Origin: an uncultured Bacteroidales bacterium
GTDB taxonomy: Bacteria; Bacteroidota; Bacteroidia; Bacteroidales; Bacteroidaceae
DNA length: 64,000 nt
Assembly (NCBI GenBank): GCA_902801485.1
Contig: CADCIP010000010.1
Span: forward strand, 25,465 to 89,464
Reading direction: 5' to 3'
Below are positions 19,973-42,778 of the stretch, piece by piece. The first letter of the stretch is position 1, and every line of letters begins with the position of its first letter. Below the pieces are notes generated by a model, which saw only the letters and a program-made list of their open reading frames with translations, had not been told where the DNA came from and did not search any database. The translations under genes and the position numbers were made by a program.

Positions 19973-20087
19973 AAACAGCCAGACGGCCCCCGAGCCAGGA
20001 CGTTTTTGGCTTCTTCTTTTGTTTCTTTATCTTCTTTCCCACGGAAGAAGAAAAGAAAAAAGGTTTTGTTTCTTTTTCTAAAAGAAA

Positions 20088-20141: not shown

Positions 20142-23100
20142 TTATTCACCAACAATAACTTCAGTATCTTTCTTCACAATACCGGCATCACCACCGCCAA
20201 AGACGTTGCCCATGATGTTGGCACCGTTCATGATATGAACCTTTGTCCATACTGAGAGGGCGAACCATTCGGGATGCTCTACAGATTCATCACCGCGGCC
20301 TGCGCCATAAACCTCACCACCATATTCTTCTTTGTATCCCTCTATTACACCCACAGCACCAGCAATGTTTACGGTGTTGACAGCCATCATACCCTTCCCA
20401 TGGATATCGTCAGCATAGGGACCTTCACTTGTACTACTACTGAATAGTAGAGAGGGAGGAATAACACTGGCCAATGAACCACCGCCATATACGTTACGGT
20501 AAATGACGTTGCCTGGAGCTGCTTGTGTACCTGCTACACCAGTAATGCCATTGCCAACGTTAATGGTAGTTGTATGTGTAACGGAACCGGCAGAGCTACT
20601 ATTATGCATTTTTTTCTCGCTGTCCTCATACTTTCCGATACCAGATCCACCTCCATAAATGTTACCACGGTGCAGCCAGTTCAGGTTATTAAGCTCTTTT
20701 TCAGGCGTCAAATCTTTCGTACCTATCAGGGTTCTGTAAGTATCATTATATGGTATACCTATCTCACCCTTCTTAATAGACACGTTTGTGCTGCGGCGTA
20801 CATGTCCATCCTGACCTCCACCGTAAACAGAACCGTAGATGCGTGGGCTCGATTCGGGAACTGCTGGTTCGTAATTGTTATCGCCTACTTCACCAACAGC
20901 ATCTTTTGCTTCTTGCCCAATGGTTACATTTGTCTCGTTCACATAGCCACAGAAGAAATCTACAGTTCCTGAGTTCGGAACCATACTTCCTGGTTCTGCA
21001 GTAGCCTGACCACGACAACCGCCAAAGACATTACCCGTAGGCATATCATCCTTCGTGAGAACATTAAAGAGTAACTCCTTCATGTCGTCTGCATCGTCAT
21101 CGTCACTTTCAATAGCAGATTTATATGTGGTAGAGGTACCAGGATTTCCTTGTGCGTCACATGGGGTAACCACTGTATTATCGTTAGGCATGTAACCTAC
21201 AATACCACCTATAATATTAACTGTGGCGATGCCACTGTTCAGGAAATGCCATGCATTATCAGGATTTGCACTTGTGGTTTCTGTTGTCCACAGGTTGCCT
21301 GTAATCTTCTCTCCATAACCGTCAGGATAGAAGTCATCAGCACCACCGGCATAGTTACCCTTACCAATAGAACCCAGGTTACCACCACCATAGATATTGC
21401 GTAATACACGTCCACCGGTCATATTCACCTCTGTGTTACCATATACCTTACCGGCAGTAATGCTGTGGACTTTCTTTGACTCACCACTTGGGATGTATTT
21501 ACCTTTACCCTTACCACCGCCATAGACAGCATGCCCAATGAAACCATTCTTAATGTTCACCTGAGTGTTTTCATATACATGGCCATTTTCACCACCACCA
21601 TACACTGAGCCGGTAATACCGGGCTCCTCATCATTAAGTTTCAGAGAGAAGGCCAATTGATTGTCATCCTCATCTATCTTTTCATAAATCTCTATCTTGT
21701 CATCTCCTGGGGTGTAAGCATTATTATTGGCATCCTTGTAATCAATGTTCACCTCTGTCTTCCTCACGTTAGCAAACTGAGCCATTTCGTATCGGTCGCC
21801 CGCTTCACCTCTTGTACCGCCAAATACATCACCATTATCAGAACCCGTGGTGCCGATGCGTCCGCCAGTGATGTTGATGGTTGTCTTACCGGTCGAATAA
21901 GTCTTTTCAACAGGATCTTCTACGGTTAAATTTGGATACGTAAATTTGACAGGCCAGCTGAGTGCAAATCCATTATCCACATTATCGTGCTTAATGATAT
22001 TATTTGGTCCTTCCAATATTCTGCCTACGGAACCCATTGAACCGCCGCCATACACACTTTGAGCTATCAAACCTCCTGAGATATTCACATCGGTGTTGCC
22101 GATTACACAACCAGCCCATGTATTGTGAAGTTCTTCGCCTGAATCAACTTTGTTGTTATTGTTTTTGTCATCCCAGTAGGTATCCGTACCGCATCCGGCA
22201 CCATAAACATTGCCGCGTGTAATCCAGGCTTTTTCATTAATCTTATCATCACCGAAGTCAAACCAGGGATCTGTTTCATCCACAATACCTATGGTACCGC
22301 TCTTCACATTGACGGTTGCGTGAGTAAAGACATGACCGTTTTCACCACCGCCATATACGGAGCCCTTGATATGCGGGCCTGTTTTGCCAGTTTCTCCAAT
22401 GTTGACGATGGATTGTTCCACCCAAGCCATCTTGTCGTATGGGTCTTTATCAACAGAATGAGATGGTATAGACCACATTTCCGTAGGCACTGGCTTCGCA
22501 ATGTCTCCGCGAGAAGAACCATTAACCATACCGTTGTCCCGTCCGCTGATACCGATGGTGCCTCCCTTGATGTTGACCGTTGCAACTCCCGTGTTAGCTT
22601 CCCAATGGAAAGGATATCCCTTGGGGATATTCGCCATCTCATCGGTTTTTCCATCAGAGAAGGTAAATGTACCCACAGAGCCTAAGGCACCACCACCATA
22701 TACATTATGGTAAATGAAGGGCTCGCCCTCTTCGGAACCTGCGTTAATTGTAACATTGGTGTTACCCTTAACAACGCCAAGTAGGGTATGTGTCTTGTTA
22801 CCCTTACCACCACCATATACATTACCCATTGTGGCACCTCCAAACATCACATATCCAGGATCTGTATCTGTCTTGGGTTTTACTTCACCCTTACCAATCT
22901 TACCACCGCTTATGGTAACTTCGGTGTCGCCACCCACAGCAGCCACTTCACCGCCGCCAAATACGCTGGCCCAAACATGACCATCACTCATGCTGACAGT
23001 GGTATTACCATCGACGAGGGCACCCAATTGATTAACTTGAGCGTTTGTGGTAATCTCTCCAATTTCTGCTTCAGTTCCATATCCGCCACCATATACGCTA

Positions 23101-26100
23101 CCGAAGGTGTAGCGAGTTACCTCTGTTGTAGTGGTGTTAGGTTCTTCACCTTCAGTGACAGTCTCCTTAATCTCAGTACCGATAGTACCGCCCTGAATAT
23201 CAATGGTTGTGGTACCGCCTTGCACGTTTTTACCATTGACATAAGATCTTATGGCTCCGAACTCACCACCGCCATATACATTACTCTTAATGGTAGCGCC
23301 TCCTGTGATGGTCAGTTTGGTGCTCTTAGCTGCACCAAGCTTCATCCAGTCAATAGCAGTGATTTTGGACGTGCCATCCAACTGAGTGCGGCGTCCCATG
23401 CTACTGGCAAAGACGTTACCACCCTTGGTATGAGACAAGCGATAGGTGTACGTTCTGGTATTACCAGTCTGAATAGAGTCTGCGATTTCAAATTCAGTGT
23501 TGGGGATATGGTCTGTCACCTGCTGTGCCTTCAGTCCATCCACCGCCGTCTTCTTAGCGGCTTCAATCTGCGCCACTGTCTTTCCATCGGTGGCAACATT
23601 GAAGGTATAATACTTATACTCCAGATCATTACCGATCGTACCGCCAGTGATGTTGATTTCCACATGGCCGCGTCCCTTCGTAAAGAATCCTCCATCAGCT
23701 GTGCCATCGTCGAATAGATGGTCATCACGCATCTCACCATAGCCAGGTGTAGGATTACCATCTGTTTCTGCATCATAGAGTCCATAGCCCACAGAGCCCA
23801 GACGACCACCGCCATAGACAGAGCCAAGCATTGTACCACCAGAGATATTCATCGTCACGCTACCAGCCACGTTACCAGCAGTGTATGCATCACCGGCGAA
23901 TCCACGACCACCACCAAAGATGTTACCATCTACATAGCTGGTACCCCATGTGCCAATCTTTGTGGCATTCCCTGCGTATAGGTCTGCATACGCCTCAGCA
24001 TAGGTTGTCTTGTCGGTTTCATTACCACTAATGTTCATGGTCACATTACGCATCACGTGTCCATCTTCACCACCGCCAAAGGCTGAACCGTAGATCCATC
24101 CTCCATTAATGTTGACTTCAACATCTTGCACATTTGTTTGCTTGTTGAACAATACACGTGGGTCACCCTTACCACCACCGAAGAGATAGCAAGTCACGGG
24201 GTGAGCAGCAATCTGACCCAAGGTACGTGGTACACCAATGGTGCCGCCCGACATATTGACTGTACACTTACCCGCCACATTTGTCAACTCGTTACCGCCA
24301 TAGACATTGGTCAGGATATGTCCACCCTTGATATCTACTACGGTATTGCCGCCTACATCACCAGCCTTCCAGTGCCATGTACCTGCTGCATAGGGGAAAT
24401 AGCCGGATCCACCACCGAATACGTTTCCATAGAAGGTACTGCCGTTATCACCTGTAGTACTACCACCCTTGGAATCATAACTATTCGCATATATATCATG
24501 GGCAGCATATTTGCCAGTACCAGAAGCCTGTCCATACAACCAACTTGCACATTCAGGCAGAGACGATGTGTAGTTGGTCGTAGAAACCAAATCTTTCAAT
24601 GCCTGCCTATCATCATTGCCCATGATCAACTTCCCTTGCGACCACTCAGTCGTTGTATAGCGACGATTGACAGAGAGTGGGTTTGCCAGATACGTACCGT
24701 CATCAGCCATCTGCACATAGCCATTACCAATCTGGCAATCACCTTCTATAATCACATGCGTATCGTGCTGCACGAATCCTTGCTCAGCACCACCAAAGAC
24801 ATCACCCTTCACAAAGGCATTTCCACCAATCGTGACTTTGGTCTGTGTAGCCAAGCCCAAAGATTCAATAAAAGTAAGGTAATCTTCCTCCGTCGTAAAT
24901 CCTGTTACCAGCTCATTGTTTGGCGTCATGTGTTGTGCTGATGAAAAAACACCAGGCGTAGCACCCATACCGGCACCAAAGACGTGGCCGCTATTATCGG
25001 GACCGCCCTCCTTAGTCATCGTCATGTCATCAGGTCCTATCTCAGCATCATCACGAACGATGACAGTACAGTTACCACTCTTCTCGTTCTTCAAAGACTC
25101 TGGCAATCCCGTAGTCGCATTCACGTTATATCGGCCTACCGAAGCAATCTCGCCACCACCATAGACGCTGCCGCCAACTTTGGACTTACCCTGAATGGTC
25201 ACCGTACTATTGCCACGTACTAAAGCAGCGTAGCCATGGGTAGCGATTCCCTTTCCGGCACCGAATACGTTGCCACGGATAGTCACCTCGTTCGTTGTAT
25301 TGCCTTGGACACCGATGGTCACCACCGTGTTCTTTTCCACACGACCAAGTTCACCGCCGCCATAGACATTACCAGTTCCTGCTTTCAGTTTTTCGCCTTC
25401 AAGAGTACCCACAGTGCCATTAGCAATGGTAACACTTGTTCCACCGTTGGCATCAATCAAACCGTCACCGTCAGCGCCCACCATAGCGGAAGCACACTTG
25501 AATGCGCCATCGCCAGTGTTTTTGGTTTCACCCTTACCACCACCGAACACATTACCTGTAATTGTAGCTGCGTTACGGCCGGTGGTTGTAGGAGCCGCCG
25601 CCGATTCACCAAGTTCATCGTACCAAGCCCATACAGCAGCCGTCTTGATATCATTTGTGTTTCTGGCACCAGTCAATGTCGCATTATAGGCCTCTGGAGA
25701 ACTACTCGTTACTTTTACATAAATACCTGTTGCAGTCGCAGTCTCTCCTGTTGTATATAATGGATAATAAGTGTTTGCATCTAAGTTTGTTGCATTAACC
25801 TTGAATTGTTGCCCAACGAAACTGGGTGCATTCGCATCAACAGTTGTATTAGTCACTACCTGAACAGTAGTCCATCCGTCAGCTTGGGAAACTTGTTTCA
25901 CGATTCCGCTTCCATGCTGTGTATTACCACTATTGTCTGCATAAGAGGTAAACGAATAGACTACATCAGTCAATGAGAGTGCACCTGTTAATGTTGCATT
26001 ATAAGTATTACATTCTTCCGGCGTATAAGTCACAGCAGGTGTCTCTAACTTGTACAAGAGTTTTTCGCCACTGGTATTTGTTGTCTCCCATATAGGATTT

Positions 26101-29100
26101 CCATTGACATCCCATTCCGAAATCCACTGACCCGTACCTATCTCTACATACGTATTACCAATCACATCAGCCAGTTCACCGCCACCATAGATATCACCAA
26201 TGGTACCGATGGAAAGTATCTGGTTGCCCGCAGCATCTTTTTGGTCAGCAGGTAAAGAAGAGTAGCCTGCCTTTTCCTTGGCATACTTCTCCAAAATCAT
26301 ACCCTTCTCCATGTTCACGTTGATGTGCGGACTGCCAATCATTGTAGCACCGGCACCATAGCCACCACCAAAGATTTTACCAATCGATGTTGCTGAGACA
26401 ATATTGATACGAGGATCCCACCGCGGAGTGGCCAAAGCACCAGCTTCGCCAGGCATGTAAGGGATTCTCTGATAAACACCTTCAATGTCATTGCCATTTT
26501 TATCCTTTGCATTTTGCGTCTCCGTCTTGTATCCATAGATAGAGTAAGGTGCCAAATAGCCTCCGCCATACAACTCACCTATCGTGATCGGTGTACAGCC
26601 AGCCTCCTGGATAGTAATCGTAATTTTACCATTGATAGTACCTGCTTGGTTGTTACCACCGAAGACTTTTTCATAATGGCCATTAGTGATGATGATATTA
26701 ACGTCACTGTTAAGATTGGCATTATAAGATCCACCGAATATAGTACCACCTTCTTCCACGCAATCGAGCACCAGACGCGATTCAGCATCAGTCTCTGCAG
26801 ACTTACTGCTTGCGTAGGCCTCGTCAGTAACCAAAGTACATGTACCGGCTTGCAGAAGCTGCATTTCTATATTATTACTGATATTGCCCTTCATGTTACT
26901 ACCACCATATACTGTATGGATATGTCCGCCGTTGACAATTGAATGGGCAGTGCCCTTTCCGTATTTATAGGCCTCTCTGGCTTCGGGAGTTGTAGCATCT
27001 TCCACAGCGGGATAGGCTTTTGCCTCTTCGGAGCCGTCTTTCTCTGCGTCACTTGTATTGTGGTGGGTATAGTTCTTATATCCCACATTAGCGCCAGGAT
27101 TCTCATACCACTTATCATCAGAAAACTGATAGCTGTCCTTACCATTACCACCACCAAAGAGTTCGTCGATGATAGCACAAGACTTCACTAATACGTCTGT
27201 TGCCGGTACCGAGGCCGCATTACCACCACCATATACCTGCTTGATACTAGTCACATTACAGCCTTCAATGATAACCTCAGTCTTATCTTGGTCATTGGTT
27301 GGCTCGTATGCAGCTAAGTCTCCACCACCATAGACGGCCGTCACATCGTAGTTGTGCATATCTTTCAATGCGTTAATGATTGCATTTGCTGCATTGGTTA
27401 TACTGGTCTTGTTCGTCTCGTTCAAATTATTCTCATCTGTCGTTGACAATTCTGACAAGAGTGTCTCGGCCGCAGAAATAGCTGTCGCAACTGCGGCATT
27501 TCCATTTGCAGGGGCTGCTTCTGTCTTTAGTCGTGTCAGCCAAGTCTTATAACCTTCATCATTGCCCTTAGAAGCGGTATATGGGGGAGGCGCTATTTTA
27601 AGAGAAATATTATTTGTGCCACTATTCTGTGTAGCATATACATGTACTAAGACATGTCCCTTGGGCGTTCCGTTCAAGTCGTTACATCCAAAGACTTTAT
27701 CTACGATACAGCCCTTCGCATTGTCGGCTACACCTTTATTCAGTTCCACAGTAGTATTGCCCTCTACATCAGCAGCGATACCATTCATATTGGCACCAGA
27801 TTCTCTGGTTCCCTCACCACCGCCGTAAACATCGTGATAAATACGTCCGCCCTTTAGGTTCACCTCGGTGTCTTTCTTTACTAAACCACCCTTAGCACCA
27901 CCATAGACATTACCGTAGATTTTGGCATCCTTTGAATGGTCAGAAGGATGAGGATTGATATTCACCTCCGTCCACAGAACAGTAGCGTAGTTTTCAATGG
28001 ATTCACCTGTTCCCAAGTCACCGCCACGGTCACCACGGCTACCGCCATAGATGCTACCACCATACTTATACGTATCGTAAACTGCAGGATCACCAATAGT
28101 ACCACCATTGATATTGACCGTACACTTAGACAATGATGCCGTTGCATAGTCATCCTGATTTATCTTCGGAGGACCGACACAAGCCAAGGCTCCACCGCCA
28201 TATACATTGTTATATATGATACCGCCATTGATGTCCACCGTCGTCTTGTTAGTTATAGAACCAGAAGACATACCATGCTTTCCGGTAGCCCACAGACCCA
28301 GACCAGAGCCGGCACCATAGACATTACCTCGATGGTAGCGATGATATTCGGCATCTTTACCGCCTGCTGCTGCTGTCTCTGCATAGGTCTGACCAATAGT
28401 TCCATCATTGACAATGACATGCGCACTACCACGTACGTGTCCGTCACGACCACCGCCAAAGACTTGACCGTATAAGCGTGGCCCACCATTGGATTCTGTA
28501 CCAATGGTAACCTCAGTCTCGTTAACATAGCCTAAGTAGAAGTTGGGCGCATATTCATAGCGTGGATCGAGCATAATATCCTCCGCTGCTTGTCCGCGGC
28601 TACCACCGAAGACCATACCCGTAGGAGTAGCCATACTGTTGTCTCCGCCCACACTGCCGTATGTGCCATTCAGCGTACCTACGGTTCCTCCCTCAATGAT
28701 GACGGTAGCCTTACCGCTGCTGAGGAAGGCCTTACTATTATCACTGACATTGTCCCAAAGGTTACCTGTGAGCGTCTCACCGTAACCCGCAGGATAATAG
28801 TCGTCGGCACCTCCGGAATAGTTACCCTTACCCACAGAGCCAAGGTAACCGCCGCCATAGACATTGTTCAATACATGACCGCCTGTCATGGTGATGCGTG
28901 TGTTGCCATATACCTTTCCGGCTGTCCAGCTATAGAGATTGTCTTTAGTACTCTTATATTCTTCAGTACTTTCATCTTTAAGGTAGCCCTGGTACGTACT
29001 GATTCCCTTACCGGCACCATAGACGCTCAGACCAATCAAACCATTGGTGATATTGACAGCTGCATTCTCATAGACGTGACCATCCTCACCACCGCCATAT

Positions 29101-35100: not shown

Positions 35101-38100
35101 TATTTTACACCTTTTTGACCTTCTGGGTCATCAGTTAACTCTTCTGTAATACCAATCATACCGCTATGGATGGTTACTTTGGCATCGTTCTTGGTATGAC
35201 CGTTCTCACCACCACCATATACGGAACCCATAATCTGGGGAGATGTTTTAGAGTTGGATGAAGAAGAACCTATTGTAACATCGGTATCATAGACCCATGC
35301 CACTTTATCGTGAATCTCATCAGGAGCACCCACATCACCGCGTGAAGAGCCGAACACTATACCATTTTCGTGGCCATTGATACCAATCTTACCGCCAGTG
35401 ATTTCAATCGTAGCCTTACCGGTATTCTCTTTTCCAGAAGAAAGTCCGGTAGGTAGTCCTGTTGTTCCATCATAGTCGAAAGTACCCACAGAACCATAGG
35501 CACCACCACCATATATATTATGGTAGATTTCTGGTGTTATTACAGTCTCACCATCTATGGTATTCTCAATTAATATATGGGTATTTCCTTTTACAAGCCC
35601 CGCATTAATGTTGTCGTTGTCACTTGTCTTTGTAATACTACCCTTACCGCCGCCATAGACGTTGCCTATCTCGGCTCCTCCATGCTCAGTGTTTATATCG
35701 CCAATCTTTCCACCGCGTACGGTGATGTTGGTATTGCCGTTAACAGTACCTTCCTCACCACCACCATAGACACTCTTAGCTATTGTACCGCCGGCCAAAT
35801 CTATCGTAGTATTGTCAACCTCCGTTACCAAACCAAGACCGGCACCAAACACGTTGCCTGTAATGGTTGCACCCAGAACATTGGTGGGTTCATTAGTGAC
35901 AGGTGCTCCCATATTGGAACGTATTGTAACGGTGGACTCTGTACAGATGTTCACATGGGTGTCACCCTTAACATCTGCTTCACTACCGCCACCATAGACA
36001 TTACCGATGGATCCTATTTCGTCTTTAATCTTACAACCGATGGTGTTAGCATCAATATCGGTCTGATCTGAAATGTTGGGAATATTCTTATACGCCTTCG
36101 GCAGTTGAACTGTCTCATTTAGACCAGCTTGATTACCTTTAACCTCGTTGATATTTACCGTGGGATTACCGTACATGACAGCACCCGAACCTAAACCACC
36201 ACCAAACGCATTGCCTATACTGGTGCAGGAAATAATGTTCAGAATGGGATCCCGGTACCATTGTGTTTCTGAATAATTTGTAGTAGGTGCTCCGAAAGCA
36301 TTATCCGTATGGTCACTAAGTGAACTTCTTGGCTTAACTTTATTCTCATCATTTGTGTCCGTATAATAACCAAACACCGAGTAGGCTGCCTGATTACCGC
36401 CCAGATATAGGTTGTCAATGACTAGCGGGTCACAACCAGTCTCCTCTATGGTGAGCGTGATGGGACCTTGGATGGTACCGCTTTGATCGTTACCACCGAA
36501 CACTCCAAGGAAGTGCCCACTGGTGACAACAAGGTCAACACCGCCCTTTACATTTGCCGCTCTGGCACCACCATAGACATAGTCCATGTTATTGACACAC
36601 CCCAGTATCATAGTCACAGCACCATCTTGCTCTGCCTGATTACCAGCTCCGTAAATTTCCTTTATATCGCGGACATTACAACAGTCAAATGAGGTATAGG
36701 TGGGATTTTTCTCCGGCATCGTCACGGATGTTCCACCACGCACGTTACCCTTAGTGTTACTACCACCAAAGACATACATGATATGACCACCCACTAGTTT
36801 GGTTTCGGCTTTACCTGTGCCGTATGCCTCTTTGCTCGTGTCGCCTGCATAAGCAGTCCCGTTTTCTGTCTTAGGCATCAGGCCTACATCTGCACCAGGA
36901 TTGTTAGGGGCATCTGTTGTGCTCTTACCATTACCACCGCCAAATACATAATTGATGATATAGGATCCCATGATGGTCACATCGGTAGCAGGTACAGCAG
37001 CAGCATTACCACCGCCATAAACATATTCAATACTTGTCAGATCGCAACCTTCAACCAGCACTTCTGCACAAGCAGCAGCTACCTTGGCAGGATTGCCTGC
37101 GTCGTAGCCTTCGGCGCTGGGGTCTGTTACTAATGTGGCATTTGTAGGTATATAGTCAGCTTTATTACCACCGCCATAAACAGCGGCTACATCGTAAGTG
37201 GTACGTTGTTCACGTGTCTTTGCAAGTGCCTGTTCTGAGGACTTGTCGCTACCCACTGTACGCTTTACCCAGACTTTTACATGACCCTTCGGCGAACCAT
37301 TCAGGTTGTTACAACCGAATATCTGACCAGACACAAACGTGCGGTCGTCATTGGAATCTGTCTTTGAACCAAGGTGTTGGGTCACCAGCTTCGCACCATC
37401 AAGCAATACATTGACACCACCGCCCACACGGGCTGCAATATCACTGGTGGCACCATTCTCACCGTTCTTCTGTCCTAGGCCACCACCAAAGACATTTCCA
37501 TTGATGATGCCGCCATACAAATTAACAGCGATAGCCTTAGCGGTTTGGTCATCACCTGCTTCATTGACGTTCACACCTCCCAACGCTGAACCACCATAGA
37601 CACTACCATAAATCACGGCAGCACCTGCATAGACGGGAGTCTCTCCGTCGGTCTTCGTACCGATATTCACCGTGACATCACCCTCCACCAATGTGGGCTG
37701 ACCGAAGCCTCCGCCGAATACGGTATTGACAATGTTTGTAGCTGGTTCGGGCGCTGTACCAATGGTACCACCTGTGATGGTCACTTCGGTATTGGCCTTC
37801 ACCACACCATTCTCGTTGGCACCGCCATAGACAGCGGTTTTCACGAGGGCCTTAGCATTATCGCTATTCTCTATGGTCACCGTTGTATTACCGAAGTTCT
37901 TTGCCACGATGTCCTTGGTGTTATCTGTATCATCGTGTCCCAGACCTCCACCAAATACATTCCCATTTATGGTACCTGAGTAGATATTAACACTCGTTGT
38001 CTTTGGGTCTGCGTCTGTACCAGAGTACAGTGTGCTATTGCCTTCTTTCTTTGCATTCACTGCACCTAATGCACTACCGCCATAGACATTACCTTGCACT

Positions 38101-41100
38101 GTACCGGTTCCTGTATAGGTAAAGGGAGCAGACTCGCCGCCCTTCGTGCCAAGGTTCACGGTCACGTTGCCGCCAACCACCGTGGAGGCACCCTTACCAC
38201 CACCATAGACGTCCTGAGTGACGGTACCGCTGGTCATGCTCACCTCTGTATTGCCATCCACATCGGCTGTATTGCCACCACCAAAGACATTTAGGACTCC
38301 TTCTGTTGCTGTGGCTTCAATCTTTACTTTTGTATTATGGTTTACTGCAGACATATCACCGCCACCGAATACACCGCCTGATGGAGTGCCTATTACATCA
38401 CCATTTGCATCAAATGTTTTTCCTTCTACCTTTGTGTTTCCCTTAATAGTCAAGTCGGTATAGCCCACTTTACCAAGAGCATCCAGATTCACGTCGGTTA
38501 AGACATATTTGTTGTCTTCAGTACCAGGGGCTCCTTCAGTAGTGGGAAGGTCGGCAACGTGTTTCCAATCATAGTTAACGGGATCAGGTAAATCTACCTT
38601 CTCGAATATACCCGTATTCGGGTTGAACTTGGGATTTGTTGCAAACCAATTCTTCCTCACGGGAATCTTTGGTATGTCGGCTGAATATCCACCGCCAAAT
38701 ACGTTGCCATGTACAGTACAGCCATCAAGTACAGAGGTCGCCTTATCTGAAACATTTCCCAGTTTGCCACCACCATAGAAGTTCTTATTGATGATACAAT
38801 TCTTTAGATTGGATTCAACATTCTCGCATTGCGCCAAAGAGAATGTGGCAAACTTCACAAAGAAACGGGCACCTACTAAGCCTGTTGACCATACGAAAAA
38901 TTCATAGTCATAATCAGTAGCGACACCTTTGCCTTTTTTACCATAATCAGCATGACTACTATTAGCATTAGTAGATGCACCATTGTAGTATTTGCCAAAA
39001 TCACCGTTATAGGTATTCTTGTAAGTATTGAAGTTATAACTTGTTTCGTCATAATACTTTTGCCTTGAATAGGAGAGACCACCATAGCCAGCACCGAAAT
39101 ATTCGTTGAAGGTACATCCCTCTGCATTTGTGGTGACACCCTTACCGGTTTGCATATTACCAAACTTCGGGCCACCACAGAAAGTACCCACATAACTGTT
39201 AAAGATGTCGGTGGTAATGGTTCCCTTGATGGGTTTGGTGTCGTTTATGCCACCGCCGTAGAAATTGTCAATATCGGCATTGTAAATTTGCCAATGCACA
39301 TTGCCATCGATTTGTTCTTGGGCTGCACCTGCAGCTTCAATAAAATGGCCACCGCTGATGTAGCACTCAGCGTGATCATTGGCGTTTGTTTCTGCATTCG
39401 GGTTATAGGTTCCAGAGAGGTAAAAGCCATTATATTCACCACCAGTCACGGACACTGGTACATGTGGAGTGGCTTTGTTACCGTCACTATGCGTGCCGAC
39501 ACCAAAAGAATTGATATATGCATTGCCTCCCACGTGGATATAGTAGGTCTTTCCTGAGACAGCACTAGCACGTGTGGACACGAACTGGTCCCAATAACCG
39601 CCCTGCAGAATCAACGGAGCGTATGACTTACTATTTCCTGTTATTTTCTCAGTATTTTCATATTCTATCTGGTTGGAGAACATCAGGCTGGTATTCGTGG
39701 TTTCAAACCATCCTCTCATTAGGAAGATGGTGAAATTCAAAAGGTTGCTTGCGCCATTTGGCTTCTGGGCTTGAGCAGTACCGGGAATATTCAGGAAATC
39801 AAAACGGATTGGACACACCGACTGACGGTTGCTATGGTGGTAAATCATACTATAATCGGGCTCATGGTCATTATCCAGATCTACCGACATAATGGTAAAT
39901 GGCTTGGTACCATTTGAAGGCACCGTACTTTGATGTAGGTTGCCCACTAGCACCACGGCATAGTCATACACAGTGGGATTATTAACGTCTTTGAGATTAT
40001 TCAGCGCCGATGAGATGGAGGTATAAACCGTCTGTTCGCTGCCATTTATAGTGATTTTTCCGTCAGGGAACTGTTTAACCAAGCCACTTACCTGTTGAGC
40101 GGAATATGAAGTATTGTATACCACATCGAGATATTCATCAGCCACGTAGACTGCATTTCCCCAATATGGCTCAATCCAGATATCGGTAACGCCATAGGGC
40201 ACGTCGAAATAAGCACCCTGCGAGAATACGCGACCGCTGACAGTGAATTTATCCTTATTGGAACTTTTTCGGTCGGCGAAATTAAAGTCGGGATAGTTCT
40301 TGACACCTGAGGTTGGCGCGGTATAGTTGGTAGTCGTATAGGGGTCGCCTTCAATTGCGGTGATATTGGTAATCTTCCAGCCCGTCACAACCTTGTTGTT
40401 CTTATAATTATCTGTACCGTAATCGTTGTAATAGGGTAGCTGTATCTTGTCGTAGTTGAAGTTGTAGCGTTCGAAGTCTTTGTCGGTGCGGGCTATCTCA
40501 ATTGTTCGCGATGTGATGCCGGTTCCGCTGATATGGACATTCAGTGTTTTATTACCCAACTTGCCGCCTTTGTTTCGGTCTTCCTCTTTGGGCTTGTCAT
40601 TTTCCAATGTTAAGGTAGGCGCATTATTCACATCATAATTAATGATAGAAGGATAATACCCCTGAGCCTTTAGCACCGGGTATGGCTTGGGATTAGTAAT
40701 ACTTCTATCTGCCGTTTCCAAAACCCATTTCGCCATTTCGTCTGTATTTGCCATATCACCCGTGGCGTAGAAGGCGGCTAAACGTTTGTTGCTGTTTAGC
40801 AACAGGCGATACATCTCAAAGCGCTTCAGGTATATGTCTTCAACAGCAAGGGCGTTATTATATTTTTTTGTGTTATTATCTGCGCGGGCAGCAAAGGTCG
40901 TAGCCTGATCATAAGCGTAATAGTTATAGGTGTTCAAACCTCCATGACCGTTGCTGATGTTCAGACCACCATATACAGGAGAAACATTTGTGCCACCGGT
41001 AATGTCACCATAGAACATACAGTTCATTACCATGGTACGGCAATCTTCTGCAGTTGACGCAAAAGCATTGTAACCCACAATACCACCAACGTCTCCACCA

Positions 41101-42752
41101 CCAGTAATATTAGCATAGCTATAGCAGTTGATGACACGTGATCTGCCGTCAAGATGTCCCACGATGCCGCCCACGTGTCCTGATTCAGTTAATTCGCCTG
41201 CGAGGATACCACAATTGTAGATGCGGGTATCACCTGTAGCTGTACAGGCGATGGCACCGAGGTGGTTATCACCATTACCACTACTTAGAGTGGCATTGGT
41301 CAGGATAATATTACGGATAGTTGCACCGTCGGCATATAATACCAACGGCTTATTAAAGGTGTAGTGGTTGAATTGGCCGTCAATGGTTCCCTTGAAAGGA
41401 TCATTTGCCGTTCCGATATAGTCTGTTAACGTGAAGTCATCAGCCAGAATATACGAGCGGTTCATTTCTGTCATTTCGCTCGAAGAATGAACCGTCAATG
41501 GAGGTGTGAAAACAGCTTCAGAAGACCTATAATAGCCTGGCTTTGTAGCAACGGCTCTGACAACTGTTGCACTTCCCATATTGAACGCCCCGGAATAAGG
41601 TGTGGCTGACGGTGTGGCCTCCGTGTTGTCGAGGGTATAATAGATGTTTGCACCGCCTTCTGCTGTGATGGTGATGACATTCTCTACAACCGAGATGACA
41701 GGCTTGTCAAGGATAGGAAGATTGTATGTCCTTACCGCCGTCGGAAAGTCATCACTTGGACTCTTTGCAATGGCTTTGATAGTATGCCGGTCTGACGTTT
41801 CATCGATGGTGGGGACGTTAATAGAAGTTGTGCCAGTACCGCTGGTGGGTGTATTCGTGGTAGAGGTTGTAGGTGTGCTGCCGTCAATGGTATAGTAGAT
41901 GCTCGCTCCCTCCTCAGAAGTAATTGTAAAAGTACCATCGTAATTGTTGGTGATGGTAGGGGGATCGATGGTAGCCTTTTCGAGATAGAACTTTGCATTA
42001 GCATCATTCTTCGTGTACACACCGATGATACCTGCCGTGTTTGCATAACCTGTTGGTCCACCTGTTTTACCTGACTCTCCCTTCAATGAATTTTTATTGC
42101 CACTATTGACCGTTAACCAGTTCCTGTCAGCAGCTCCGCCAACAACACCCTTAGGAGAGATGACCAAATAGGTGCTGTATGGTTCTATAGTAAACAATTC
42201 CTTGTCGTCGAGATCACCTGGTGCTATCGCTTCAAGATGCACACGCATACGGTCTGGATTATTAGTCGTCCTAATAGTGCCATTGGATACCAAGTATTTG
42301 CCATCCAGGGCACGCTTGATGTAATAGTACTCCTCGGTAGGATGCTTCTCTACAACCCACACGGCTTTTCGGGCATCATAAACACCATTCCTGCATTGAT
42401 ATGTGGTGATGAACGGCATACCATTGTCATTGTCGGTGCCGGTAAAGTCATCGGTAGCCAGGTAGTAGCACCACTCTTCTGTGGGACACAGGTAATAGTT
42501 TGTCGTGGTATTGTTTTTATTATAGCCGTTTGTACCAATATAATACACACCCGAATAGTCCTGTCCCCAAACACCATTCACACCCATAAACATGAGGAGG
42601 GTGCAGAGGAGGGCTTTGCTAAGGAAATTTTGCGCGCTAGTTAGAGAACATATTTTTCCTAGGTGGGAAAAAATATTTTTCCAGTTAGTGGGTAATAATT
42701 GGTTATCTGAGTTGTAGTTTAGTCTAATTTCTTTATCTTTATAGCTTGTCAT
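20142..42752 (-). CDS. Giant secreted beta-solenoid protein (7536 aa) with an N-terminal globular/lectin-like, 2x CHB_HEX_C-like and GLUG-like head. No T9SS C-terminal domain
   Basis: Uninterrupted 22,611-nt ORF with ATG at 42752. There is a hydrophobic signal-like segment ALLCTLLMFMGVNGVWGQ at residues 47-64. N[VI][YF]GGG-type Gly-rich repeats recur throughout. It ends ..NVFGGGDAGIVKKDTEVIVGE. Confidence 0.9.
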   Translation of the reverse strand: MTSYKDKEIRLNYNSDNQLLPTNWKNIFSHLGKICSLTSAQNFLSKALLCTLLMFMGVNGVWGQDYSGVYYIGTNGYNKNNTTTNYYLCPTEEWCYYLATDDFTGTDNDNGMPFITTYQCRNGVYDARKAVWVVEKHPTEEYYYIKRALDGKYLVSNGTIRTTNNPDRMRVHLEAIAPGDLDDKELFTIEPYSTYLVISPKGVVGGAADRNWLTVNSGNKNSLKGESGKTGGPTGYANTAGIIGVYTKNDANAKFYLEKATIDPPTITNNYDGTFTITSEEGASIYYTIDGSTPTTSTTNTPTSGTGTTSINVPTIDETSDRHTIKAIAKSPSDDFPTAVRTYNLPILDKPVISVVENVITITAEGGANIYYTLDNTEATPSATPYSGAFNMGSATVVRAVATKPGYYRSSEAVFTPPLTVHSSSEMTEMNRSYILADDFTLTDYIGTANDPFKGTIDGQFNHYTFNKPLVLYADGATIRNIILTNATLSSGNGDNHLGAIACTATGDTRIYNCGILAGELTESGHVGGIVGHLDGRSRVINCYSYANITGGGDVGGIVGYNAFASTAEDCRTMVMNCMFYGDITGGTNVSPVYGGLNISNGHGGLNTYNYYAYDQATTFAARADNNTKKYNNALAVEDIYLKRFEMYRLLLNSNKRLAAFYATGDMANTDEMAKWVLETADRSITNPKPYPVLKAQGYYPSIINYDVNNAPTLTLENDKPKEEDRNKGGKLGNKTLNVHISGTGITSRTIEIARTDKDFERYNFNYDKIQLPYYNDYGTDNYKNNKVVTGWKITNITAIEGDPYTTTNYTAPTSGVKNYPDFNFADRKSSNKDKFTVSGRVFSQGAYFDVPYGVTDIWIEPYWGNAVYVADEYLDVVYNTSYSAQQVSGLVKQFPDGKITINGSEQTVYTSISSALNNLKDVNNPTVYDYAVVLVGNLHQSTVPSNGTKPFTIMSVDLDNDHEPDYSMIYHHSNRQSVCPIRFDFLNIPGTAQAQKPNGASNLLNFTIFLMRGWFETTNTSLMFSNQIEYENTEKITGNSKSYAPLILQGGYWDQFVSTRASAVSGKTYYIHVGGNAYINSFGVGTHSDGNKATPHVPVSVTGGEYNGFYLSGTYNPNAETNANDHAECYISGGHFIEAAGAAQEQIDGNVHWQIYNADIDNFYGGGINDTKPIKGTITTDIFNSYVGTFCGGPKFGNMQTGKGVTTNAEGCTFNEYFGAGYGGLSYSRQKYYDETSYNFNTYKNTYNGDFGKYYNGASTNANSSHADYGKKGKGVATDYDYEFFVWSTGLVGARFFVKFATFSLAQCENVESNLKNCIINKNFYGGGKLGNVSDKATSVLDGCTVHGNVFGGGYSADIPKIPVRKNWFATNPKFNPNTGIFEKVDLPDPVNYDWKHVADLPTTEGAPGTEDNKYVLTDVNLDALGKVGYTDLTIKGNTKVEGKTFDANGDVIGTPSGGVFGGGDMSAVNHNTKVKIEATATEGVLNVFGGGNTADVDGNTEVSMTSGTVTQDVYGGGKGASTVVGGNVTVNLGTKGGESAPFTYTGTGTVQGNVYGGSALGAVNAKKEGNSTLYSGTDADPKTTSVNIYSGTINGNVFGGGLGHDDTDNTKDIVAKNFGNTTVTIENSDNAKALVKTAVYGGANENGVVKANTEVTITGGTIGTAPEPATNIVNTVFGGGFGQPTLVEGDVTVNIGTKTDGETPVYAGAAVIYGSVYGGSALGGVNVNEAGDDQTAKAIAVNLYGGIINGNVFGGGLGQKNGENGATSDIAARVGGGVNVLLDGAKLVTQHLGSKTDSNDDRTFVSGQIFGCNNLNGSPKGHVKVWVKRTVGSDKSSEQALAKTREQRTTYDVAAVYGGGNKADYIPTNATLVTDPSAEGYDAGNPAKVAAACAEVLVEGCDLTSIEYVYGGGNAAAVPATDVTIMGSYIINYVFGGGNGKSTTDAPNNPGADVGLMPKTENGTAYAGDTSKEAYGTGKAETKLVGGHIMYVFGGSNTKGNVRGGTSVTMPEKNPTYTSFDCCNVRDIKEIYGAGNQAEQDGAVTMILGCVNNMDYVYGGARAANVKGGVDLVVTSGHFLGVFGGNDQSGTIQGPITLTIEETGCDPLVIDNLYLGGNQAAYSVFGYYTDTNDENKVKPRSSLSDHTDNAFGAPTTNYSETQWYRDPILNIISCTSIGNAFGGGLGSGAVMYGNPTVNINEVKGNQAGLNETVQLPKAYKNIPNISDQTDIDANTIGCKIKDEIGSIGNVYGGGSEADVKGDTHVNICTESTVTIRSNMGAPVTNEPTNVLGATITGNVFGAGLGLVTEVDNTTIDLAGGTIAKSVYGGGEEGTVNGNTNITVRGGKIGDINTEHGGAEIGNVYGGGKGSITKTSDNDNINAGLVKGNTHILIENTIDGETVITPEIYHNIYGGGAYGSVGTFDYDGTTGLPTGLSSGKENTGKATIEITGGKIGINGHENGIVFGSSRGDVGAPDEIHDKVAWVYDTDVTIGSSSSNSKTSPQIMGSVYGGGENGHTKNDAKVTIHSGMIGITEELTDDPEGQKGVKYPYRGNVYGGGCGTDKYWADRSKETGQGDGDTYNAKAGIIEGKTTVLINGGLVVRDVYGAGAMGSVTGSTNVTISGDAVIGAEDNDAGGYVFAAARGEQSEPTMATVGSSNLTISGGTVWRDAYGGGQNGAVKGAVTVNLTGGTVKQDVYGGGALANTNTDNWVNNSLVYADDAVEEVTTGLTPSTSPVDGYFTRSGNSSPYTYTPALGKAKSGEKYYRILKATTVNLSGTTIVGNLYGGGLGQKNGENGATSDIVANVYGPSTITITSGNANNVFGCNNLNGAPHTAAMVFNNGGTITHDIYGGGNKADFGGSTIVKMSNGQADRIFGGGNEADVAGGVNVVICGGKVVGDVYGGGALAKTNTANWDFTAGDKTVYIVVLGLSKEKYVEKLGLAVGISPVTGLYTRTGGTGTDNDPYTYTSATGLAQENTHYYEYIPASSLKGLYSAQNENSLITTDETYNGTGTYYEARTIQGDWASNMNTASSETVTGRGPTTGGTKHKTLVTLTGGVVGNVYGGGLGRLGTEGVEAADATYYTAEDALTHNANLEGALNSTTHLTAEQAAALNAVPGVSKTDYAEGNSPTEADANLYNATLSGAKKVGDIKTPAIEAVAAIEEVKANVYGDVRVSINRTDSISKYGGTRVAFSNNPQDVVTTSGTSYSSVPLEGRVFGCNNLNGCPMGDVLVEVYGTRPEDGSSGHKNYEIQAVYGGGDQADYLPNEGKKTYVVIDGCGETSISRIYGGGNSAAVPSTNVTIWGSYDIEYAFGGGNGSQPVKKFGNWEDNTGADVNGAANITCHGGKIGQVFGGSDAKGNCRSTNPTLEQAGGCPLVITKLYGAGSEADVDGDVNVVIAACTETNSQIEYVCGGSYKAHIKGDVTLTITSGFFKNVYGGNDMRGGIGGNITVNIEETDPCDKPIIIENLVGGGNRAKYPGTDKDGNAYETKTRTITVNAKSATRIENVYGGGFIEEATANTKVNINMVKGLKAGNTVLLPTDYELYSTEKGGSGTYHNISGISTTYVVVNGLTVGTSSVAGYYTDNTGTTLASGVAQSGVTYYEKRVTGHIADAIGTIGNVFGGGQHGKVNGDAEVNIGTATSVGIMRRDPSTHALVDESGNSIYGADGKITTIYYVNQDVRGAHITGNVYGGGEEANVTGSTEVNICTEETAPGEYAAVTEGAEKVTIGGTVYGGGSKADVLTNTTVRMYNGYVFNGIFGGGYSGSVGTFTRKTEEEYTGVYGHTPHTGCIGKPVSCASGTGLCTVVVKGGQIGPVEVATLGMERPDADGGPVAEGWVWGGGCGIIEDPAVEPDAHFKTYVGSTNVTIGGTAFILESIIGGGEFGRVLGNTNVTIQDQCQIGVGKGKAENGKPIRYTDDQWTAAATAVTSGNATDINNAAASMPECSHFPYGNSNNEYLPYDPYYKDFTQYVSAHPDLSPASTDNPSDGKTWIGCVFGGGSGYMPYKIKEGNNAVGYDWCRSAGWVEGNANLTITGGHILTNVYGGNEYTDVGTPGVANTGKCTVKMSGGTIGVPRTLQQIADHPVTCYLFGGGKGDERTHFDQFTNVNSVEVEVSGGIIYGSVFGGAEDGHVLGDAKVVIKDNAKIGTWGTSYVDGNVFGGGRGFSGKNLIAGGVGGNTQINITGGTMLGSIYGGGRLASVGIDLDEKIGNDSYGQLIDETGSNGEHGHITIDIRGGKIGTTTEAGTNHPVGGNVFGGSMGRTTLLDGSTNPMWPKMAVAKLTKVDISGGEIMNNVYGGSEYGIVRNRATVNILPNATPANSPVIHGHVFGGGYGSDEREPTTIRAGGYSSIPTSYYTFTPMTWTGCVSGDTNVNISGGKVEKNVYGGGEYASVGLINFNSEENGTYNYITKHESLTDGFGLSWPYKFQYIKAAPNDAESVGGNNLGGKATVTITGGHIGSTTWDDRTGYVFGGSKGQVAFKKKVKNDQNVLVEVDITDIHEQRYTEAFCANVRETAVNINYGSTPTGKDPTNIGGEDNCIMGAVYGGGEDGHVYENAAVNITNGLIGLSVYGAGKGISTYQGYLKDESTEEYKSTKDNLYSWTAGKVYGNTRITMTGGHVLNNVYGGGYLGSVGKGNYSGGADDYYPAGYGETLTGNLWDNVSDNSKAFLSSGKATVIIEGGTVGTLNGTYGSVGGDNSMATPTGMVFGGSRGQAAEDIMLDPRYEYAPNFYLGYVNETEVTIGTESNGGPRLYGQVFGGGRDGHVRGSAHVIVNDGTIGQTYAETAAAGGKDAEYHRYHRGNVYGAGSGLGLWATGKHGMSSGSITNKTTVDINGGIIYNNVYGGGALACVGPPKINQDDYATASLSKCTVNINGGTIGDPAVYDTYKYGGSIYGGSRGDRGGDLGTGESIENYATVLWTEVNINPHPSDHSKDAKIYGNVYGGAKGGLVKKDTEVNLKGGRIYHDVYGGGEGTRESGANMNGIAADVEGNTTVELNKGVADNAKGCIVDKVFGCNDLNGTPKGHVLVHVYATQNSGTNNISLKIAPPPYTASKGNDEGYKTWLTRLKTEAAPANGNAAVATAISAAETLLSELSTTDENNLNETNKTSITNAANAIINALKDMHNYDVTAVYGGGDLAAYEPTNDQDKTEVIIEGCNVTSIKQVYGGGNAASVPATDVLVKSCAIIDELFGGGNGKDSYQFSDDKWYENPGANVGYKNYTHHNTSDAEKDGSEEAKAYPAVEDATTPEAREAYKYGKGTAHSIVNGGHIHTVYGGSNMKGNISNNIEMQLLQAGTCTLVTDEAYASSKSAETDAESRLVLDCVEEGGTIFGGSYNANLNSDVNIIITNGHYEKVFGGNNQAGTINGKITITIQEAGCTPITIGELYGGGYLAPYSIYGYKTETQNAKDKNGNDIEGVYQRIPYMPGEAGALATPRWDPRINIVSATSIGKIFGGGYGAGATMIGSPHINVNMEKGMILEKYAKEKAGYSSLPADQKDAAGNQILSIGTIGDIYGGGELADVIGNTYVEIGTGQWISEWDVNGNPIWETTNTSGEKLLYKLETPAVTYTPEECNTYNATLTGALSLTDVVYSFTSYADNSGNTQHGSGIVKQVSQADGWTTVQVVTNTTVDANAPSFVGQQFKVNATNLDANTYYPLYTTGETATATGIYVKVTSSSPEAYNATLTGARNTNDIKTAAVWAWYDELGESAAAPTTTGRNAATITGNVFGGGKGETKNTGDGAFKCASAMVGADGDGLIDANGGTSVTIANGTVGTLEGEKLKAGTGNVYGGGELGRVEKNTVVTIGVQGNTTNEVTIRGNVFGAGKGIATHGYAALVRGNSTVTIQGKSKVGGSVYGGGEIASVGRYNVNATTGLPESLKNEKSGNCTVIVRDDAEIGPDDMTMTKEGGPDNSGHVFGAGMGATPGVFSSAQHMTPNNELVTGFTTEEDYLTFIESLGLATQTKVTIGGNAFVKGDVFGGAEQGFVQHDTHVIIEGDCQIGNGYVQMADDGTYLANPLSVNRRYTTTEWSQGKLIMGNDDRQALKDLVSTTNYTSSLPECASWLYGQASGTGKYAAHDIYANSYDSKGGSTTGDNGSTFYGNVFGGGSGYFPYAAGTWHWKAGDVGGNTVVDIKGGHILTNVYGGNELTNVAGKCTVNMSGGTIGVPRTLGQIAAHPVTCYLFGGGKGDPRVLFNKQTNVQDVEVNINGGWIYGSAFGGGEDGHVMRNVTMNISGNETDKTTYAEAYADLYAGNATKIGTWGTSYVDGNIFGGGRGFAGDAYTAGNVAGSVTMNISGGTMLGSVYGGGRLGSVGYGLYDAETDGNPTPGYGEMRDDHLFDDGTADGGFFTKGRGHVEINITGGTIGNDLEYKYYTFNVATDGKTVAQIEAAKKTAVDGLKAQQVTDHIPNTEFEIADSIQTGNTRTYTYRLSHTKGGNVFASSMGRRTQLDGTSKITAIDWMKLGAAKSTKLTITGGATIKSNVYGGGEFGAIRSYVNGKNVQGGTTTIDIQGGTIGTEIKETVTEGEEPNTTTTEVTRYTFGSVYGGGYGTEAEIGEITTNAQVNQLGALVDGNTTVSMSDGHVWASVFGGGEVAAVGGDTEVTISGGKIGKGEVKPKTDTDPGYVMFGGATMGNVYGGGKGNKTHTLLGVVKGNTNVTINAGSEEGEPFIYHNVYGGGALGSVGTFTFSDGKTDEMANIPKGYPFHWEANTGVATVNIKGGTIGISGRDNGMVNGSSRGDIAKPVPTEMWSIPSHSVDKDPYDKMAWVEQSIVNIGETGKTGPHIKGSVYGGGENGHVFTHATVNVKSGTIGIVDETDPWFDFGDDKINEKAWITRGNVYGAGCGTDTYWDDKNNNNKVDSGEELHNTWAGCVIGNTDVNISGGLIAQSVYGGGSMGSVGRILEGPNNIIKHDNVDNGFALSWPVKFTYPNLTVEDPVEKTYSTGKTTINITGGRIGTTGSDNGDVFGGTRGEAGDRYEMAQFANVRKTEVNIDYKDANNNAYTPGDDKIEIYEKIDEDDNQLAFSLKLNDEEPGITGSVYGGGENGHVYENTQVNIKNGFIGHAVYGGGKGKGKYIPSGESKKVHSITAGKVYGNTEVNMTGGRVLRNIYGGGNLGSIGKGNYAGGADDFYPDGYGEKITGNLWTTETTSANPDNAWHFLNSGIATVNIIGGIVGYMPNDNTVVTPCDAQGNPGTSTTYKSAIESDDDDADDMKELLFNVLTKDDMPTGNVFGGCRGQATAEPGSMVPNSGTVDFFCGYVNETNVTIGQEAKDAVGEVGDNNYEPAVPESSPRIYGSVYGGGQDGHVRRSTNVSIKKGEIGIPYNDTYRTLIGTKDLTPEKELNNLNWLHRGNIYGGGSGIGKYEDSEKKMHNSSSAGSVTHTTTINVGNGITGVAGTQAAPGNVIYRNVYGGGSLASVIPPSLLFSSSTSEGPYADDIHGKGMMAVNTVNIAGAVGVIEGYKEEYGGEVYGAGRGDESVEHPEWFALSVWTKVHIMNGANIMGNVFGGGDAGIVKKDTEVIVGE
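40953..41465 (-). other. GLUG-motif-like region of the 7536-aa protein (about aa 430-600)
   Basis: FKGTIDGQFNHYTF..IRNIILTNATL..GAIACTATGDTRIYNCGILAGEL..GGIVGHLDGRSRVINCYSYANITGGGDVGGIVGYN matches the pattern F.G.fDG.gh.I..L then (v/i)GG(l/i)vG repeats. Confidence 0.55.
41505..41969 (-). other. Two chitobiase/hexosaminidase-C-terminal-like (CHB_HEX_C / Fn3-associated type) modules (about aa 262-416)
   Basis: TFTITSEEGASIYYTIDGSTPT..HTIKAIAKSP and VITITAEGGANIYYTLDNTEATPSATPYSGAFNMGSATVVRAVATKPGYYRSSEAVF. Confidence 0.55.
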
Positions 42753-42778
42753 GGCTCTGTTTTAAACACTTTGCGGAG

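Follow-up and report, generated by a model that had tools for sequence, protein, structure and literature searches.

Is a secreted protein of 7536 residues that ends without a type IX secretion system (T9SS) sorting domain the product of a damaged gene, or is it made that way, and how might it then reach the cell surface? The question is raised by a 64,000-nucleotide stretch of DNA, here called the window, from an uncultured Bacteroidales bacterium (GenBank assembly GCA_902801485.1, contig CADCIP010000010.1, positions 25,465 to 89,464 of the forward strand). On its minus strand, a single 22.6-kb open reading frame (ORF) of 7536 codons covers positions 20142..42752; its product is referred to as the giant, and the 4447-aa product of the neighbouring gene upstream as the partner. 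A C-terminal domain (CTD) is regarded as both required and enough for export by the T9SS (PMC10202324), and a CTD-less Sec substrate therefore needs another explanation. A first-pass annotation of this DNA had left two: dependence on the CTD-bearing neighbour or on nearby pilins, or truncation of the 3' end, possibly through a GC-rich element, E7, located directly after the stop. Comparison with its relatives shows that the giant belongs, by its sequence, to an uncharacterised family that is widespread in Prevotellaceae/Bacteroidales of rumen and gut and counts hundreds of proteins, among which it is very long. We consider it probable that the giant is a native, CTD-less fibre protein of an Mfa-like/T9SS operon, displayed on the surface through its cluster partners and not through a signal of its own.

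The evidence for a native end comes from the homologues. A search with the last 800 aa of the giant was run against 5.8 billion proteins, and the best 120 metagenomic homologues were examined. The terminal motif ...GNV[FY]GGGDxGxVKKDxEVxIG, scored with the pattern GG[GAS][DN]xGx[VT]x[KR..][DN]xxVx[IV]G, was present in 90 of these (34 to 60% identical), mostly 0 to 6 residues from the end. Likewise, a scan of one genome per species yielded 74 loci from other species, and the ORF ended 0 to 28 residues past the motif in 57; most of those 57 ORFs spanned >3500 codons before reaching the locus edge, and giant size is therefore common. The minority that continued past the motif did so with a Pro/Thr tail, a tail of about 60 residues, a BACON domain or an extra module that again ended in a coil. 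In one subset (loci L007, L027, L033, L043 and L058; proteins P0013, P0052, P0055, P0074, P0086, P0115 and P0119), the terminal coil is followed by a Pro/Gln-rich tail of about 55 to 65 residues ending in a conserved ...EAPxNRS(I/V)(T/R)T(R/N)(Q/R)AxAQ. This tail, not present in the window protein, could be a distinct C-terminal tag. BACON domains (PF19190/PF13004) follow the terminal coil in L036 and L052 and in P0071, P0083, P0088, P0095 and P0099.

A search with the head of the giant (aa 1-1450, E<1e-10) returned 474 homologues that were 40 to 63% identical and matched the giant both in architecture and in the way they end. These included complete proteins of 1450 to 2535 aa, one of them from cultured Prevotella communis, none of which carries a CTD annotation. 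With the exception of a few that appear frameshifted or cut, the short members that were read through end in ...GNV[YF]GGGNxxxVxGxTxVxI[GEQ] and a small number of further residues. An equivalent coil also closes the more distant members of the family. The related sequences stem almost entirely from metagenome-assembled genomes (MAGs) of rumen and gut Prevotellaceae/Bacteroidales, and the sole name given to the family by NCBI is 'chitobiase/beta-hexosaminidase C-terminal domain-containing protein'. Its members start with a Sec signal, often extended, that is cut before Gln. A conserved N-terminal domain, CHB_HEX_C Ig-like modules and a GLUG region come next, then Gly-rich [VI][YF]GGG coils in variable number, and the chain stops after the last coil strand. 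The giant has all of these traits of the head class. Truncation was rejected because the same end is the norm across homologues and species; this comparison shows, on sequence grounds, a native stop and an intact gene. The truncation proposed in the first-pass annotation is thus contradicted. The alignment of orthologues suggested there, as a way to see whether they extend into a CTD, pointed the same way: the family members examined carry no CTD and mostly end at the same coil motif. An orthologous giant on a metagenome contig (L001:1-14026) is called as two genes of 6184 aa and 1341 aa with a 4-nt overlap, probably because its repeats are frameshifted or were misassembled.

That the giant lacks a T9SS CTD, as originally noted, was borne out by profile searches of its C-terminus. 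Searches of the last 150, 200 and 800 aa against Pfam and NCBIfam gave nothing at E<=10, including the models for type A (TIGR04183 / PF18962) and type B (TIGR04131 / PF13585) CTDs. A local hidden Markov model (HMM) built from 43 partner-family CTDs had no match in the giant, and its best score among 240 family C-termini was 8 bits; similarly, no precomputed annotation of Por_Secre_tail was present in 240 homologues. No CTD-like ORF was found downstream of the stop in any frame, nor any frameshift or read-through into a CTD. With respect to other export routes, Pfam identified neither a classical autotransporter C-terminal beta-barrel nor a TPS (Haemagg_act) domain in the giant, and no TpsB/Omp85 gene was found in the window. 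None of the 15 window ORFs of at least 150 aa that were scanned matched PorP/SprF, the gene looked for next to a type B substrate. Literature searches on the family and on CTD-less T9SS passengers returned nothing relevant.

E7 begins a few nucleotides past the stop, as had been reported, and folds into a G+C-rich hairpin of 12 bp that contains one internal mismatch and precedes the U-run UUUUCUUUU (centroid structure, -26.2 kcal/mol; minimum free energy z-score, -2.6). It is the intrinsic terminator of the giant gene; a simple terminator scanner did not list this hairpin, and folding recovered it. E7-like sequence followed the stop in 2 of 48 homologous loci, both close orthologues (L004 and L026), while the remaining loci had unrelated downstream sequence yet the same protein end. 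As most homologues share the protein end without E7, E7 did not create the stop, and an E7-linked truncation was discarded. Hairpins of the form CCCCC-(2-3 nt)-GGGGG also occur at 988-999, 19184-19196 and 57235-57246 (3 exact matches versus 0.23 expected), as well as at 14979-15020 and 43460-43490. The first three sites lie, in this order, just inside the 3' end of ORF 966-3170, just after rpsO and just after the gene of a 435-aa lipoprotein. Hairpins of this family are likely terminators in the same style as E7. A search of the whole window against Rfam at gathering thresholds gave no match.

The body of the giant consists of Gly-rich coils. Between aa 1351 and 7517, the motif [VIL][YF]G[GAS][GASC] was counted 96 times, versus 1.4 expected in shuffled sequences, with a smallest spacing of about 25 to 30 residues; the strict form N[VI][YF]GGG occurs 27 times. 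The thousands of residues of N[VI][YF]GGG-type repeats described earlier amount to about 6200 residues of [VIL][YF]GGG-type coils, to which no Pfam family matches. The C-terminus reads ...NVFGGGDAGIVKKDTEVIVGE. VKKDTEV is found once at this end and once internally (aa 4958-4968), where the chain continues NLKGGRIYHDVYGGG. Self-BLAST showed that aa 3806-4964 resemble aa 5892-7532, and the giant therefore stops at exactly the point of the module where the earlier copy had ended; together with the internal VKKDTEV copy, this agrees with the original description of an ORF ending at a repeat-module boundary. An AF2 model of the last 240 aa (pLDDT 77, pTM 0.81) has short strands up to the last residue. 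Foldseek comparison of this model with PDB and BFVD gave no significant match (best E about 2), and the weak, non-significant matches were beta-helices: tapirin, HpmA, DFA-IIIase, ice-binding proteins and TibA. A beta-solenoid is a reasonable inference for the coil body.

At its other end, the giant has a single strongly hydrophobic stretch, located at aa ~40-60 on a 19-residue scale and by inspection at aa ~47-58, preceded by about 45 residues as the first-pass annotation had observed. The signal peptide was assigned by inspection, and cleavage by signal peptidase I likely occurs at VWG↓QDYSG. The sequence ...WG↓Q(T)DYSG(V/T)YYIG recurs in homologues, whose n-regions are often long. The mature N-terminal Gln of the giant fits the Q-rule of Bacteroidota. 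By inspection, the giant has the N-terminal Sec signal expected of T9SS cargo, with VWG↓Q conserved among homologues. The signal is of the signal peptidase I type, so the lipobox Cys of type V pilins is missing, and pilin Pfam families are absent from homologues of both the head and the C-terminal region. The mature N-terminus is strongly conserved in the family (Q(T)DYSGxYYIGxxGYN..NYYLCPTEGW), and a weak PDB profile match of the first domain to designed beta-trefoils (E=0.05) gives a weak hint of such a fold. Pfam recovered both features previously noted in the head, the two CHB_HEX_C-like modules (CHB_HEX_C_1/Fn3_assoc, two stretches, E=1e-14) and the GLUG-like region (Glug, aa 524-550, E=1e-4). 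Residues 421-1447 are 54 to 59% identical to homologues in L077, L071 and L002, compared with 35 to 45% for the coils. The head profile also matches PDB 6xja (IgA1 protease) over chain residues 131-393 (E=1.8e-9), and homologues carry PF05342, Peptidase_M26_N. A metalloprotease function was ruled out, as the HExxH motif is absent from the giant and the partner.

Members of the partner family are about 3400 to 4700 aa long, with a coil at the mature N-terminus (AQ↓IKIGGNVYGGGN...) and a divergent type A CTD. The CTD of the partner itself scored 19.5 bits against TIGR04183, below the cut-off of 23; four homologues had the same best match at the extreme C-terminus, one of them at 23.8 bits. Furthermore, 41 of 42 large representatives of the family end in ...PGxT(V/I)ET....G(V/I)YIV....KKLxVK, and partner CTDs were also seen in L078 (P. 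communis), L002, L077 and L080. The earlier assignment of a CTD to the 4447-aa neighbour is thus supported by the family tail and by one homologue above threshold, while the neighbour's own score remains below it. The listed start of the 4447-aa ORF, a TTG, is probably placed too far upstream; translation would rather begin at an ATG, at 57098 or 57077, which gives a normal signal peptide MKQLISPIKSIGLRGLMAFIFMF...NVYG↓Q.

The giant and the partner form a conserved pair. Of 80 loci found in a metagenome scan with the head of the giant, 46 were informative (at least 3 kb of upstream sequence), and 33 of these (72%) had a homologue of the C-terminal 900 residues of the partner directly upstream, at a median gap of about 300 nt. 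The combination of a CTD-bearing with a CTD-less giant was also found in cultured P. communis (CP091792.1), an Alloprevotella MAG, L077 and L080. In P. communis, a homologue of 2423 aa, ending in ...NTNVQIGK, is encoded downstream of a CTD protein of 4027 aa. A rumen metagenome contig (L082), an independent assembly of the window's species with a 376-aa pilin product 99% identical to that of the window, shows the same order from the pilins to the start of the 4447-aa gene. In L080, L089, L093, L115, L121, L127 and L162, the partner is succeeded by a tandem of two or three CTD-less family genes, and the later copies are without the N-terminal CHB_HEX_C part.

We rank partner-assisted export or anchoring as most likely, above an autonomous route, a cryptic CTD, a lack of export and truncation. 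The giant would be exported by Sec, cut by signal peptidase I before Gln and folded into a fibre of about 100 nm or longer, a length that depends on an assumed beta-solenoid rise per coil. Its lectin-like or Ig-like head would serve as the working end. The protein would reach, or be held at, the cell surface through other products of the cluster, with no sorting signal of its own, and the likeliest helper would be the CTD-bearing partner, exported and anchored by the T9SS. This role for the partner is plausible, the argument for it being one of synteny.

A more specific arrangement, which we regard as improbable, is a split fibre in which the C-terminal end of the giant stacks on the N-terminal end of the partner, giving a CTD-anchored composite of about 12,000 residues with the lectin-like head at its tip. 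The giant ends in an apparently uncapped coil, ...VKKDTEVIVGE-COOH, with no recognisable capping domain after it. The partner class starts with an apparently uncapped coil, Q-IRIGGNVYGGGN..., which is kept in the window protein, in all 10 full-length representatives read and in L020 and L125. Because one chain ends and the other begins with a coil, head-to-tail stacking is suggested, and the partner might even take the chain that has no CTD along through the T9SS. In L020, a partner N-terminus and a giant C-terminus form one continuous chain. The partner N-terminus was also considered as a specific continuation of the giant's super-module; this was rejected, as phmmer shows only generic coil similarity all along the giant.

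The L020 locus is itself unusual. At L020:4883-10666 (compare window 20145-21422 and 52221-57110), a single gene of 1928 aa replaces both giants, between flanks orthologous to the window, with pilins upstream and downstream DNA that is 80% identical. Its product corresponds to aa 1-1630 of the partner (49% identity) joined to aa 7111-7535 of the giant (48%), and the join falls in the sole region of similarity between the two window giants. The gene is either a real recombinant, formed by recombination-mediated deletion, or a chimeric MAG assembly.

Among the alternatives to partner-assisted display, an autonomous route is the one we take most seriously, while still considering it unlikely. The family would then be exported through an unrecognised mechanism, such as a head signal, an unlinked transporter or outer-membrane vesicles, and the synteny would reflect co-regulation or shared ancestry. 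Stand-alone genes and tandem CTD-less arrays with no partner in view favour such a route, as does the fact that aa 421-1447 of the head are the most conserved part of the protein. Very large exoproteins are known to carry extended signal peptides, which the long n-regions of the family recall. However, the absence of a TPS domain, an autotransporter barrel, a TpsB/Omp85 gene and a PorP/SprF gene argues against it, and so does the close and frequent placement of the partner directly upstream. It is doubtful, to a greater degree, that the last coil or coils form a cryptic T9SS signal, either a Prevotella-type short CTD or a new CTD class, which would make the giant ordinary T9SS cargo. In Prevotella intermedia, 48 short CTDs of 40 to 51 aa are predicted, and it took custom HMMs to find them (PMC11969387). 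The terminal motif of the giant is well conserved, and the G-A-N-I and KK pair of the tail loosely recall motifs D (GxN+I) and E. Yet this motif copies an internal coil, aa 4958-4968, and often is not C-terminal, since many members append Pro/Thr tails of 4 to 28 residues, tails of about 60 residues or BACON domains. Short members swap KKD for other residues and end acidic or neutral; the B-like and D-like elements of the tail, compared by eye only, lie outside the spacing of 1 to 6 residues reported for short CTDs; the AF2 model has no separate sandwich domain; and the partner-CTD HMM finds nothing to match.

Two further readings carry much less weight. The giant might not cross the outer membrane at all, remaining periplasmic or being released on lysis. 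No outer-membrane sorting signal of a known type was found, which would agree with this, but a fibre of >7000 residues with an Ig-like, lectin-like head, encoded in an operon of pilins and T9SS cargo, would be hard to reconcile with it, and we judge a periplasmic fate very unlikely. Least probable of all, to the point of being nearly negligible, is a truncated gene that has lost its CTD, whether a misassembly is to blame or the 3' end underwent a real deletion or insertion connected with E7. The chain does end where the internal paralogous module goes on, and a GC-rich element does lie immediately past the stop; however, the end is shared by the species-level loci, the metagenomic homologues and the short members, that element is a terminator hairpin absent after most of the homologues with the same end, and a CTD-like ORF is missing downstream.

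Several observations weigh against surface display through cluster partners. About a quarter of the informative loci are without a partner directly upstream, and stand-alone family genes occur in L081, L107, L131, L133, L109 and L119, so an adjacent partner is not obligatory. Exceptions to the pairing are of three kinds: tandem CTD-less arrays, a different CTD-bearing giant (L101) and truly stand-alone genes. The dependence on the partner or pilins envisaged in the first-pass annotation therefore agrees with the conserved pair and with a pilin fold upstream, and less well with the members that have no such neighbour. No T9SS core genes are located within the window. Short CTDs of the Prevotella type can escape standard models (PMC11969387). 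Although the AF2 model is confident, neither PDB nor BFVD holds a significant structural match to it, so the beta-solenoid remains a predicted fold, and the export and surface location of the giant are argued from its signal peptide and by analogy.

The features of the locus are listed in Table 1. In the direction of transcription on the minus strand, the cluster comprises four lipoprotein genes, the 4447-aa ORF, a repeat-rich leader of 1 kb and, last, the giant gene. This is followed on its 3' side by the E7 hairpin, about 600 nt of non-coding DNA, rpsO (19219-19488) and a YfhO-like gene. Elsewhere, the window is of housekeeping character (polysaccharide synthesis, V-ATPase, rhamnose utilisation).

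Table 1. Features of the giant gene, the partner gene and the surrounding cluster (window coordinates)
Feature	Position	Strand	Basis or detail
Gene of the 7536-aa CTD-less giant (head class)	20142..42752	-	ATG 42752, TAA 20142-20144
Extended signal peptide, aa 1-63	42564..42752	-	n-region ~45 aa, h-region ALLCTLLMFMGV, predicted signal peptidase I site VWG↓Q
Conserved N-terminal domain of mature giant, aa 64 to ~275	41928..42563	-	numerous invariant positions when homologues are aligned
Two CHB_HEX_C_1/Fn3_assoc Ig-like modules, aa ~280-414	41511..41915	-	Pfam
Best-conserved family part, aa 421-1447, including GLUG region	38412..41492	-	identity to homologues
Gly-rich coil body, aa 1351-7536, presumed beta-solenoid, large super-modules	20145..38702	-	motif count, self-BLAST
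Internal paralogue of terminal motif, aa 4958-4968, VKKDTEVNLKG; chain runs into next super-module	27849..27881	-	self-comparison
Terminal coil IMGNVFGGGDAGIVKKDTEVIVGE, the conserved native C-terminus of the family	20145..20216	-	homologue ends
E7 hairpin ACCCCCUCUUCCC-CCAAAU-GGGAAGUGGGGGU then UUUUCUUUU	20079..20119	-	folding
Leader of 1 kb between partner and giant; 86-nt tandem duplication, several inverted repeats	42753..43766	-	
4447-aa partner-class gene; coils from mature N-terminus (NVYG↓QIRIGGNVYGGG)	43767..57110	-	
Divergent T9SS type A CTD of partner, last ~75 aa	43770-43994	-	
435-aa lipoprotein, presumed pilin-like accessory subunit	57266..58573	-	lipobox FSSC
376-aa lipoprotein, type V (Mfa/FimA) pilin fold	58705..59835	-	lipobox VGAC, AF2 and Foldseek
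Two paralogous lipoprotein genes of ~640 aa, presumed stalk-type pilins	59935-61863, 62007-63944	-	lipoboxes, motifs shared with 376-aa protein

None of the four upstream lipoproteins matched a Pfam or NCBIfam family even at E<=10, and PDB sequence and profile searches with them found nothing. Homologues of the 376-aa lipoprotein carry PF13149 (Mfa_like_1). Its AF2 model (pLDDT 76.8) had 36 Foldseek matches in PDB at E<=1e-3, all of them Bacteroidales fimbrial proteins, including FimA (6jzk), Mfa3 (5nf4) and Mfa2 (5nfi); on the strength of this model, the protein is identified as a type V pilin. Pilin roles are presumed for the 435-aa and the two ~640-aa lipoproteins, which all have lipoboxes and motifs in common with the 376-aa protein. 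Homologues of the 435-aa protein adjoin partner-class genes in L020, L125 and L126, and L020 keeps homologues of the ~640-aa lipoproteins in the same order.

Within the leader, the tandem duplication occupies 42779-42950 and ends 27 nt upstream of the ATG of the giant. Its two copies are 86% identical, each holds a small A/T-rich hairpin, and the repeat is absent from 162 related loci. Farther upstream, at 43169-43312, a 14-nt inverted repeat (GGTAGCAGATGCTC / GAGCATCTGTTACC, 13/14 complementary) flanks 116 nt, with nested complementarity as well; this stretch might encode a structured RNA or act as a small invertible segment. In several homologues from other species (P0145, P0158, P0198, P0202, P0206 and P0237), gene callers prolonged the protein upstream through a translated string, ...MARVWLEYAYS...FLRPFSSKRAELERRL...ITARRSRDYGS..., that recurs in the N-terminal ~90 residues. 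The leaders of these genes thus seem to share a conserved DNA element. The 'FLRPFSSKRAELERRL' upstream element was not found in the window.

The closest known parallel to the arrangement of the cluster is the mfa operon of Porphyromonas gingivalis, whose large last product, Mfa5, has a signal peptide and a type IX CTD (PMC7835359). In mfa1-mfa5, genes of pilin-fold lipoproteins precede that of a large Sec-dependent CTD protein, as do the four lipoprotein genes and the 4447-aa gene of the window. In contrast, the large proteins of the window are 4 to 6 times longer, are built of Gly-rich coils and have no vWA domain that could be found, and the extra CTD-less giant or giants at the end of the cluster have no mfa counterpart. 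SprB and RemA of Flavobacterium johnsoniae, from the same phylum, likewise are repetitive proteins of several thousand residues and presumed surface fibres (PMC10202324). However, SprB depends on the adjacent SprF and carries a type B CTD, and RemA has a type A CTD, whereas the giant has neither a CTD nor a PorP/SprF neighbour. Like the TpsA exoproteins of two-partner secretion (FHA, HpmA), the giant is a presumed beta-helix of very great length, with an extended signal peptide, conservation of the N-terminal region and no C-terminal sorting signal, but it is without a TPS domain and a TpsB gene, and no sequence relationship was found. The IgA1 protease (M26) of Streptococcus pneumoniae has an N-terminal GLUG domain, and this non-catalytic N-terminal domain is all that is shared. 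Chlamydial Pmp proteins and autotransporter passengers such as TibA also have short Gly-rich motifs at coil spacing; their motif is different, and no Chlam_PMP or barrel match was found in the giant.

Giant surface fibres encoded in pilin/T9SS operons of Bacteroidota are already known, and what appears to be new here is a CTD-less family as an exception. A Sec-exported non-lipoprotein in Bacteroidota would be expected to need a CTD for the T9SS (PMC10202324), and the family of the giant departs from this expectation as a whole. Either a partner can mediate the export or display of cargo, or these bacteria possess some other path for very large fibres. As cultured P. communis carries the gene pair, the question can be tested experimentally. 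Both options would alter the prediction of T9SS secretomes, because current predictions count CTDs only, and both would have implications for the attachment of rumen Prevotella to other cells or plant material.

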